Shown here one piece after another: positions 62,179 to 62,188 of a stretch of DNA of 64,000 nt. The translations under genes and the position numbers were made by a program. The notes under the pieces were generated by a model that was not told the DNA's origin, made no database searches, and saw only the letters and a program-made list of their open reading frames with translations. The stretch's first letter is position 1. Each line of letters starts with the position of its first letter. Source of the DNA: Escherichia coli (lineage in GTDB: Bacteria > Pseudomonadota > Gammaproteobacteria > Enterobacterales > Enterobacteriaceae); NCBI RefSeq assembly GCF_030013595.1, contig NZ_CP122768.1; one strand, written 5' to 3'.

Positions 62179-62188
62179 GGGGGGGGGG
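62179..62188. repeat. Homopolymeric G10 tract
   Basis: Ten consecutive G (C on the minus strand) between the agn43 regulatory region and the YeeP-like gene. Confidence 0.9.

Follow-up and report, generated by a model that had tools for sequence, protein, structure and literature searches.

The window considered here, the whole stretch of 64,000 nucleotides of E. coli DNA that was analysed, contains an intact gene of 948 codons for an Ag43/Cah-family autotransporter adhesin, present as an open reading frame on the minus strand at 59026-61872, and homologues of this gene, 2847 nt in length, bear the annotation 'Ag43/Cah family autotransporter adhesin'. Upstream of it, on the same strand at 61891-62127, lies a match to the IS102/IsrC-like leader RNA of agn43 (Rfam RF00124) scoring 68.1 bits (E = 3.4e-10; gathering score 46). 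Immediately ahead of the ribosome-binding site the agn43 leader carries, on the minus strand at 61904-61931, a 12-pair G+C-rich hairpin followed by TTTTTTATT, which is kept in K-12 and resembles a leader terminator or attenuator.

The region of the Dam/OxyR switch is recognised by three GATC sites on the minus strand (62090-62093, 62103-62106 and 62122-62125), read directly and by homology to K-12. Such sites have a role in the competition between Dam and OxyR, and accounts of the agn43 switch invoke three GATC sites and a single OxyR site only (PMC13337833, PMC2909390). In K-12 MG1655 the annotated 5′ end of isrC coincides with the G of the upstream GATC, 5 nt past TAGAAT, and the transcription start of the window was set at 62125 by homology to this annotation. 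Transcription of agn43 reportedly starts at this same G, according to work of Wallecha et al. from 2002, with which the start derived from isrC agrees, and a region of 101 nt is said by the same authors to suffice for agn43 phase variation. The putative -10 hexamer of the window, TAGAAT (62131-62136, minus strand), is identical in K-12 and all alleles and is separated by a 17-nt spacer from a putative -35 hexamer, TTGCGT (62154-62159, minus strand), which is invariant across the aligned alleles. The -35 box was assigned from sequence, a generic promoter scan not having called it.

On the far side of the promoter lies a frameshifted YeeP/YkfA-type GTPase gene (62244-63115, minus strand), present as two overlapping open reading frames. 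In relatives the gene at the same place is intact, 873 nt long and annotated 'GTPase family protein', and the 3′ end of the window gene aligns with K-12 yeeP. Alignment A4 located a 1-nt deletion in the window between 62453 and 62454, where the GGCGG of all relatives has become GGGG; the two overlapping reading frames result from this deletion, which could be real or a sequencing error. Two other reading frames in the vicinity were rejected. One of these, at 62082-62192 on the minus strand (MTPPPH...), starts at an ATG beside the tract described below, with no Shine-Dalgarno-like sequence upstream and with a frame and length that differ with every allele, while the other, an antisense frame at 62169-62612, runs opposite the GTPase gene, which it overlaps, and is without support.

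Between the GTPase gene and the adhesin promoter the plus strand reads ten consecutive G residues at 62179-62188, with an A before and a T after the run (...GGTGGGTATGA-G10-TCATGTTTTCAG...), confirming the ten-G run reported in the preliminary description. As the neighbouring genes are all on the minus strand, the sense strand of either neighbour reads C10 here. From the nearest GATC (62122-62125) to the start of the tract is 54 nt, and the tract lies on the downstream side of the GTPase stop codon (62244-62246) at a distance of 55 nt, and as such its original placement, about 55 nt past the GATC switch and just downstream of the YeeP-like frames, was right. Relative to the inferred agn43/cah transcription start it occupies -54 to -63, and the position of the isrC 5′ end and of TAGAAT in K-12 places it upstream of the -35 box. 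It does not fall within the GATC/OxyR-binding region (62090-62125) and is outside the RF00124 match, 52 nt upstream of the 5′ end of that match; no Rfam match covers the tract, the IS102 leader being the sole one. An alternative promoter across the tract was considered and rejected, since neither strand of 61700-62500 gave a promoter-like site in a consensus scan and inspection identified no hexamer pair that brackets the tract. A G-quadruplex or i-motif would seem improbable, a single run of G10 offering no clear four-tract motif.

No other run of eight or more G or C residues occurs in the 64-kb window, the next longest being one G7, at 19784-19790, and two G6, with a longest C run of five. 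Shuffling with preservation of dinucleotides generated at least one G10 or C10 in 12 of 100 trials (mean 0.18). Measured against the real sequence the tract thus stands out clearly, and it is unusual, but by composition alone it is neither overwhelming nor statistically extreme.

The tract sits in a hypervariable G/T-rich segment, defined by alignments and 24 nt long in the window (62166-62189), between the conserved anchors CGCAAGAGAAA and CATGTTTTCAG. Across 140 homologous loci the anchored segment is 22-27 nt long, with usual forms of ...GAGGTGTTTGTGT or ...GAGGGGTTTGTGT, and positions 62170-62189 form one of the two bins in which the entropy of the intergenic region is highest. The other hotspot of intergenic variability is found within the -35/-10 spacer at 62140-62149 (ACAGCAAGGC), the highest-entropy bin in an alignment of 108 sequences. 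The 55-nt spacer from the GTPase stop codon to the tract (62189-62243, minus strand) is nearly invariant in alignments A1, A3 and A4, a conservation that is partly forced by the anchor of the metagenome scan. A region of the window type (at least 80% coverage) was present in 3,451 of the 5,426 complete E. coli genomes, as against at least 113 genomes carrying a run of eight or more G. Among 120 metagenome contigs recovered by the two anchors, 117 had short interrupted forms and three had eight or more G. About 97% of alleles are without the tract and carry in its place an interrupted motif of equal length, such as GGTGTTTGTGT or GGGGTTTGTGT.

In K-12 MG1655 there is no tract, all of the sequence that separates the yeeP stop codon from the -10 box being unrelated. 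Comparison of window 62130-62243 with 1712-1806 of the MG1655 locus (L006) revealed that much of the leader also differs, while the GTPase 3′ end, the -10 box, the GATC region and the leader hairpin are common to both. The unrelated sequence between the stop codon and the -10 box, together with the differing leader, indicates that agn43 regulatory regions fall into two families or more. The closest relative of the window over 8 kb is strain T2 (L138), with 99.0% identity. At the start-site-proximal Dam site, homologous to window 62122-62125, T2 has GATA rather than GATC, a change expected to affect the Dam/OxyR switch of T2. The 90 nt of the window at 62140-62229 had no exact match in any complete E. 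coli genome; the far-left bases are those of one flank type and the near-left bases those of another, which suggests a mosaic or an unsampled allele. A scan of one genome per species returned a single match, a 1,560-nt contig (L141, JAIJJM010000733.1) filed under a Collinsella sp. MAG, which is probably E. coli contamination of the Collinsella bin.

Tract length was surveyed in the 5,426 complete E. coli genomes by exact-match queries of 78-82 nt, over which one difference brings identity below 99%. With the flank GGTGGGTATGA, G9 followed by CATG was found in 45 genomes and G10 followed by CATG in 20, with G9T in 11, G10T (the window allele) in 10 with an identical 80-nt context, G11T in 14 and G12T in three. 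Most of the second flank type (GGTGGATATGA) carries a stable G6TGTAT, and the longer runs on this flank were G8TAT (one genome), G9TAT (three), G10TAT (four) and G11TAT (one). A third flank type was seen in strain T2, which has G9TGT. Long tracts therefore occur on at least three near-flank backgrounds, and they are common in STEC lineages (O26:H11, O103:H2, O111:H11 and O121). In NZ_CP030768.1 (2017C-4173W12) there are two copies of the region, at 2492222-2492299 and 5089026-5089104, with tracts of different length, G9 and G10, each followed by CATG.

Closely related genomes were found to differ in tract length with no other change nearby. Strains 2011C-4315 (G10T) and 2015C-3163 (G11T) have no mismatches over 402-nt flanks, the same being true of O26 RM10386 (G10) and O26:H11 11368 (G9), and within O103:H2 both G9T and G11T are present. 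The comparison across related genomes proposed at the outset thus reveals lengths of G8, G9, G10, G11 and G12, and this range, with flank-identical pairs one G apart, supports the earlier view of the run as a substrate for slipped-strand mispairing. The presence of long tracts in metagenome contigs (G9TAT, G10 and G11) and in the O26:H11 11368 reference genome makes it unlikely that the polymorphism is only assembly error. Where long-read assemblies differ by one residue, some of the length calls may reflect errors of the homopolymer consensus. The predominance of G9 in the O26:H11-like group (45 genomes) is in keeping with an instability that is moderate and not extreme.

The origin of the run can be followed through a series of alleles of equal length, GGTGTTTGTGT to GGGGTTTGTGT to GGGGGTTGTGT to GGGGGGTGTGT to GGGGGGGGTGT to GGGGGGGGGGT to GGGGGGGGGGG, all steps of which are seen in nature, with GGGGGGGGTGT carried by 13C1065T, GGGGGGGGGGT by the window and GGGGGGGGGGG by L098. 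In every step a T that borders the run becomes G, and most of these changes join the lengthened run to the next G. The interrupted G/T motif GGTGTTTGTGT would have been converted to G10 by successive T-to-G substitutions, the run growing through G2, G4, G5, G6, G8, G10 and G11. To judge from this pattern, the likely cause of the T-to-G steps is transient misalignment of primer and template at G(n)-T-G, which would lengthen the run and leave the total length unchanged; the model leaves unexplained those steps in which the next base is T and not G. Past about eight G, gain or loss of single G residues by replication slippage would presumably account for the G8-G12 spread that is observed.

The preliminary description had allowed that the run might be no more than a sequencing or assembly artefact. 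Points in favour are that homopolymers are prone to error, that the window also carries the unshared 1-nt deletion in the GTPase gene, and that its 90 nt at 62140-62229 are matched exactly by no complete genome. Against this, the identical G10T allele in its identical 80-nt context was recovered from 10 other, independent complete genomes, the neighbouring lengths G9, G11 and G12 also exist, metagenome contigs and O26:H11 11368 carry long tracts, and the 24 nt of the window segment equal the total length of the interrupted motif in the nearest flank type. As such an artefact is rejected as the source of the tract, and it is very improbable that the G10 of the window record is one, while an error of one residue in the length of the tract may be present in this particular assembly. 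A different proposal gives the tract a function in RNA, in which a C-rich, G-poor and unstructured transcript that includes the tract would load Rho and end read-through from the GTPase gene before the agn43 promoter, a longer C run acting more strongly. Poly(C) is a classical activator of Rho, the 33 nt of sense strand from the tract-adjacent ATG to the -35 box contain 19 C and one G, and the 131-nt RNA is less stably folded than shuffled sequences (z = +0.94), with no intrinsic terminator found between the GTPase stop codon and the promoter. The C-rich, G-poor and weakly structured RNA downstream of a stop codon resembles rut sites in these respects; it differs in that a rut site at the window locus would be putative, derived from composition alone. 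Furthermore, the plus strand of the ancestral motif is G-rich, which implies a similar bias of C over G on the sense strand without a homopolymer, and as such the bias would be independent of the homopolymer, which itself would not be needed for a Rho site. This role for the tract is accordingly considered doubtful.

A further possibility is that the tract is a contingency locus, whose length would change the output of the agn43/cah promoter or the bias of its switching, for example through upstream DNA contacts of the RNA polymerase alpha-CTD or through DNA shape at -54 to -63, so that genetic control would be superimposed on the epigenetic Dam/OxyR switch. The run has two of the properties by which contingency loci are recognised, being uninterrupted and longer than about eight residues (G10) and differing in length among close relatives. 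It is a G/C homopolymer of at least nine beside the promoter of a phase-variable surface adhesin, it recurs with three types of flank, and its position reaches into the distal margin of the zone in which UP elements act at sigma-70 promoters. UP elements are A/T-rich at about -40 to -60, and this was not found here, the sense strand from -35 to -63 (CCCCCCCCCCTCATACCCACCTCTTTCTC) being C-rich. Nor is the tract at a site that sets promoter geometry, since it is neither in the -10/-35 spacer nor in a coding region but intergenic and upstream of the -35 box. There is no upstream conserved element at a fixed spacing, and the distance to the -35 box from the conserved block that follows the GTPase stop codon, 22-27 nt among the common alleles, is in keeping with no evident constraint on phasing. 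Absence of the tract from about 97% of alleles and from K-12, and its location in one of the two most variable bins, also argue against such a role, and a literature search identified no paper in which a homopolymer or slipped-strand mechanism is linked to agn43 or cah. On this balance a contingency locus is unlikely, and the suggestion in the preliminary description that the run could be a second, length-dependent switch is unsupported.

The interpretation that is favoured, and that is probably correct, is that G10 is a genuine, mutationally unstable non-coding repeat between the 3′ end of the GTPase gene and the sigma-70 promoter of the Ag43/Cah gene, which originated by substitution and then varied by slippage and which most likely serves no regulatory function of its own. 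The Dam/OxyR switch, with its three GATC sites at 54-98 nt from the tract, runs the phase variation of agn43, and the tract would be carried along as a neutral or near-neutral passenger where the intergenic region is under the least constraint. The frequency of long tracts in STEC lineages and their recurrence on three flanks form a pattern that selection could produce as well as mutation bias, and because of these observations a modulatory role keeps a small probability. It is quite improbable that in O26:H11, O103:H2, O111:H11, O121 and other lineages the poly-C tract serves as a heritable, length-dependent dial of Ag43/Cah amplitude or ON/OFF bias. Were this the case, a slipped-strand switch would be stacked on the Dam/OxyR switch, a combination not described for E. 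coli.

Comparison with characterised systems places the tract among known features. The Dam/OxyR switch of K-12 agn43 (flu) shares with the window the gene family, the three GATC sites, the -10 box and the IsrC/IS102 leader, whereas the tract of the window is 54 nt upstream of the first GATC, outside the switch, where the K-12 sequence is unrelated. The poly-G tract of Neisseria meningitidis porA and the poly-C tracts of N. meningitidis opc and Bordetella pertussis fim are promoter-associated contingency loci, and the tract described here is like them in being a G/C mononucleotide run of about 9-13 residues, close to the promoter of a gene for a surface protein and with a length that differs between related strains. 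In those systems, however, the tract lies in the -10/-35 spacer or in the gap between an activator site and the -10 box, such that its length sets promoter geometry, whereas the tract of the window is upstream of the -35 box, has no partner at a fixed spacing and is present in about 3% of alleles. Polymorphic non-coding mononucleotide repeats were reportedly described in E. coli by Gur-Arie et al. in Genome Research in 2000. With repeats of this type the tract shares its nature as an intergenic mononucleotide run that differs in length between strains and has no known function, and it differs from them in that G10 (up to 12) far exceeds the other G/C runs of the window, which reach seven at most, and in being traceable stepwise to an interrupted ancestor. 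As such the tract is a further example of a known feature, the unstable intergenic mononucleotide repeat.

If the promoter were modulated by the tract, Shiga-toxin-producing E. coli would possess a second mechanism, genetic and stochastic, for tuning aggregation and biofilm formation by Ag43/Cah, one that the K-12 model could not reveal because K-12 is without the segment. If the tract is neutral, it provides a clean natural example of a homopolymer born from an interrupted motif that then became unstable in length, and it would be both a site of disagreement between assemblies and a fast-evolving marker inside STEC lineages.
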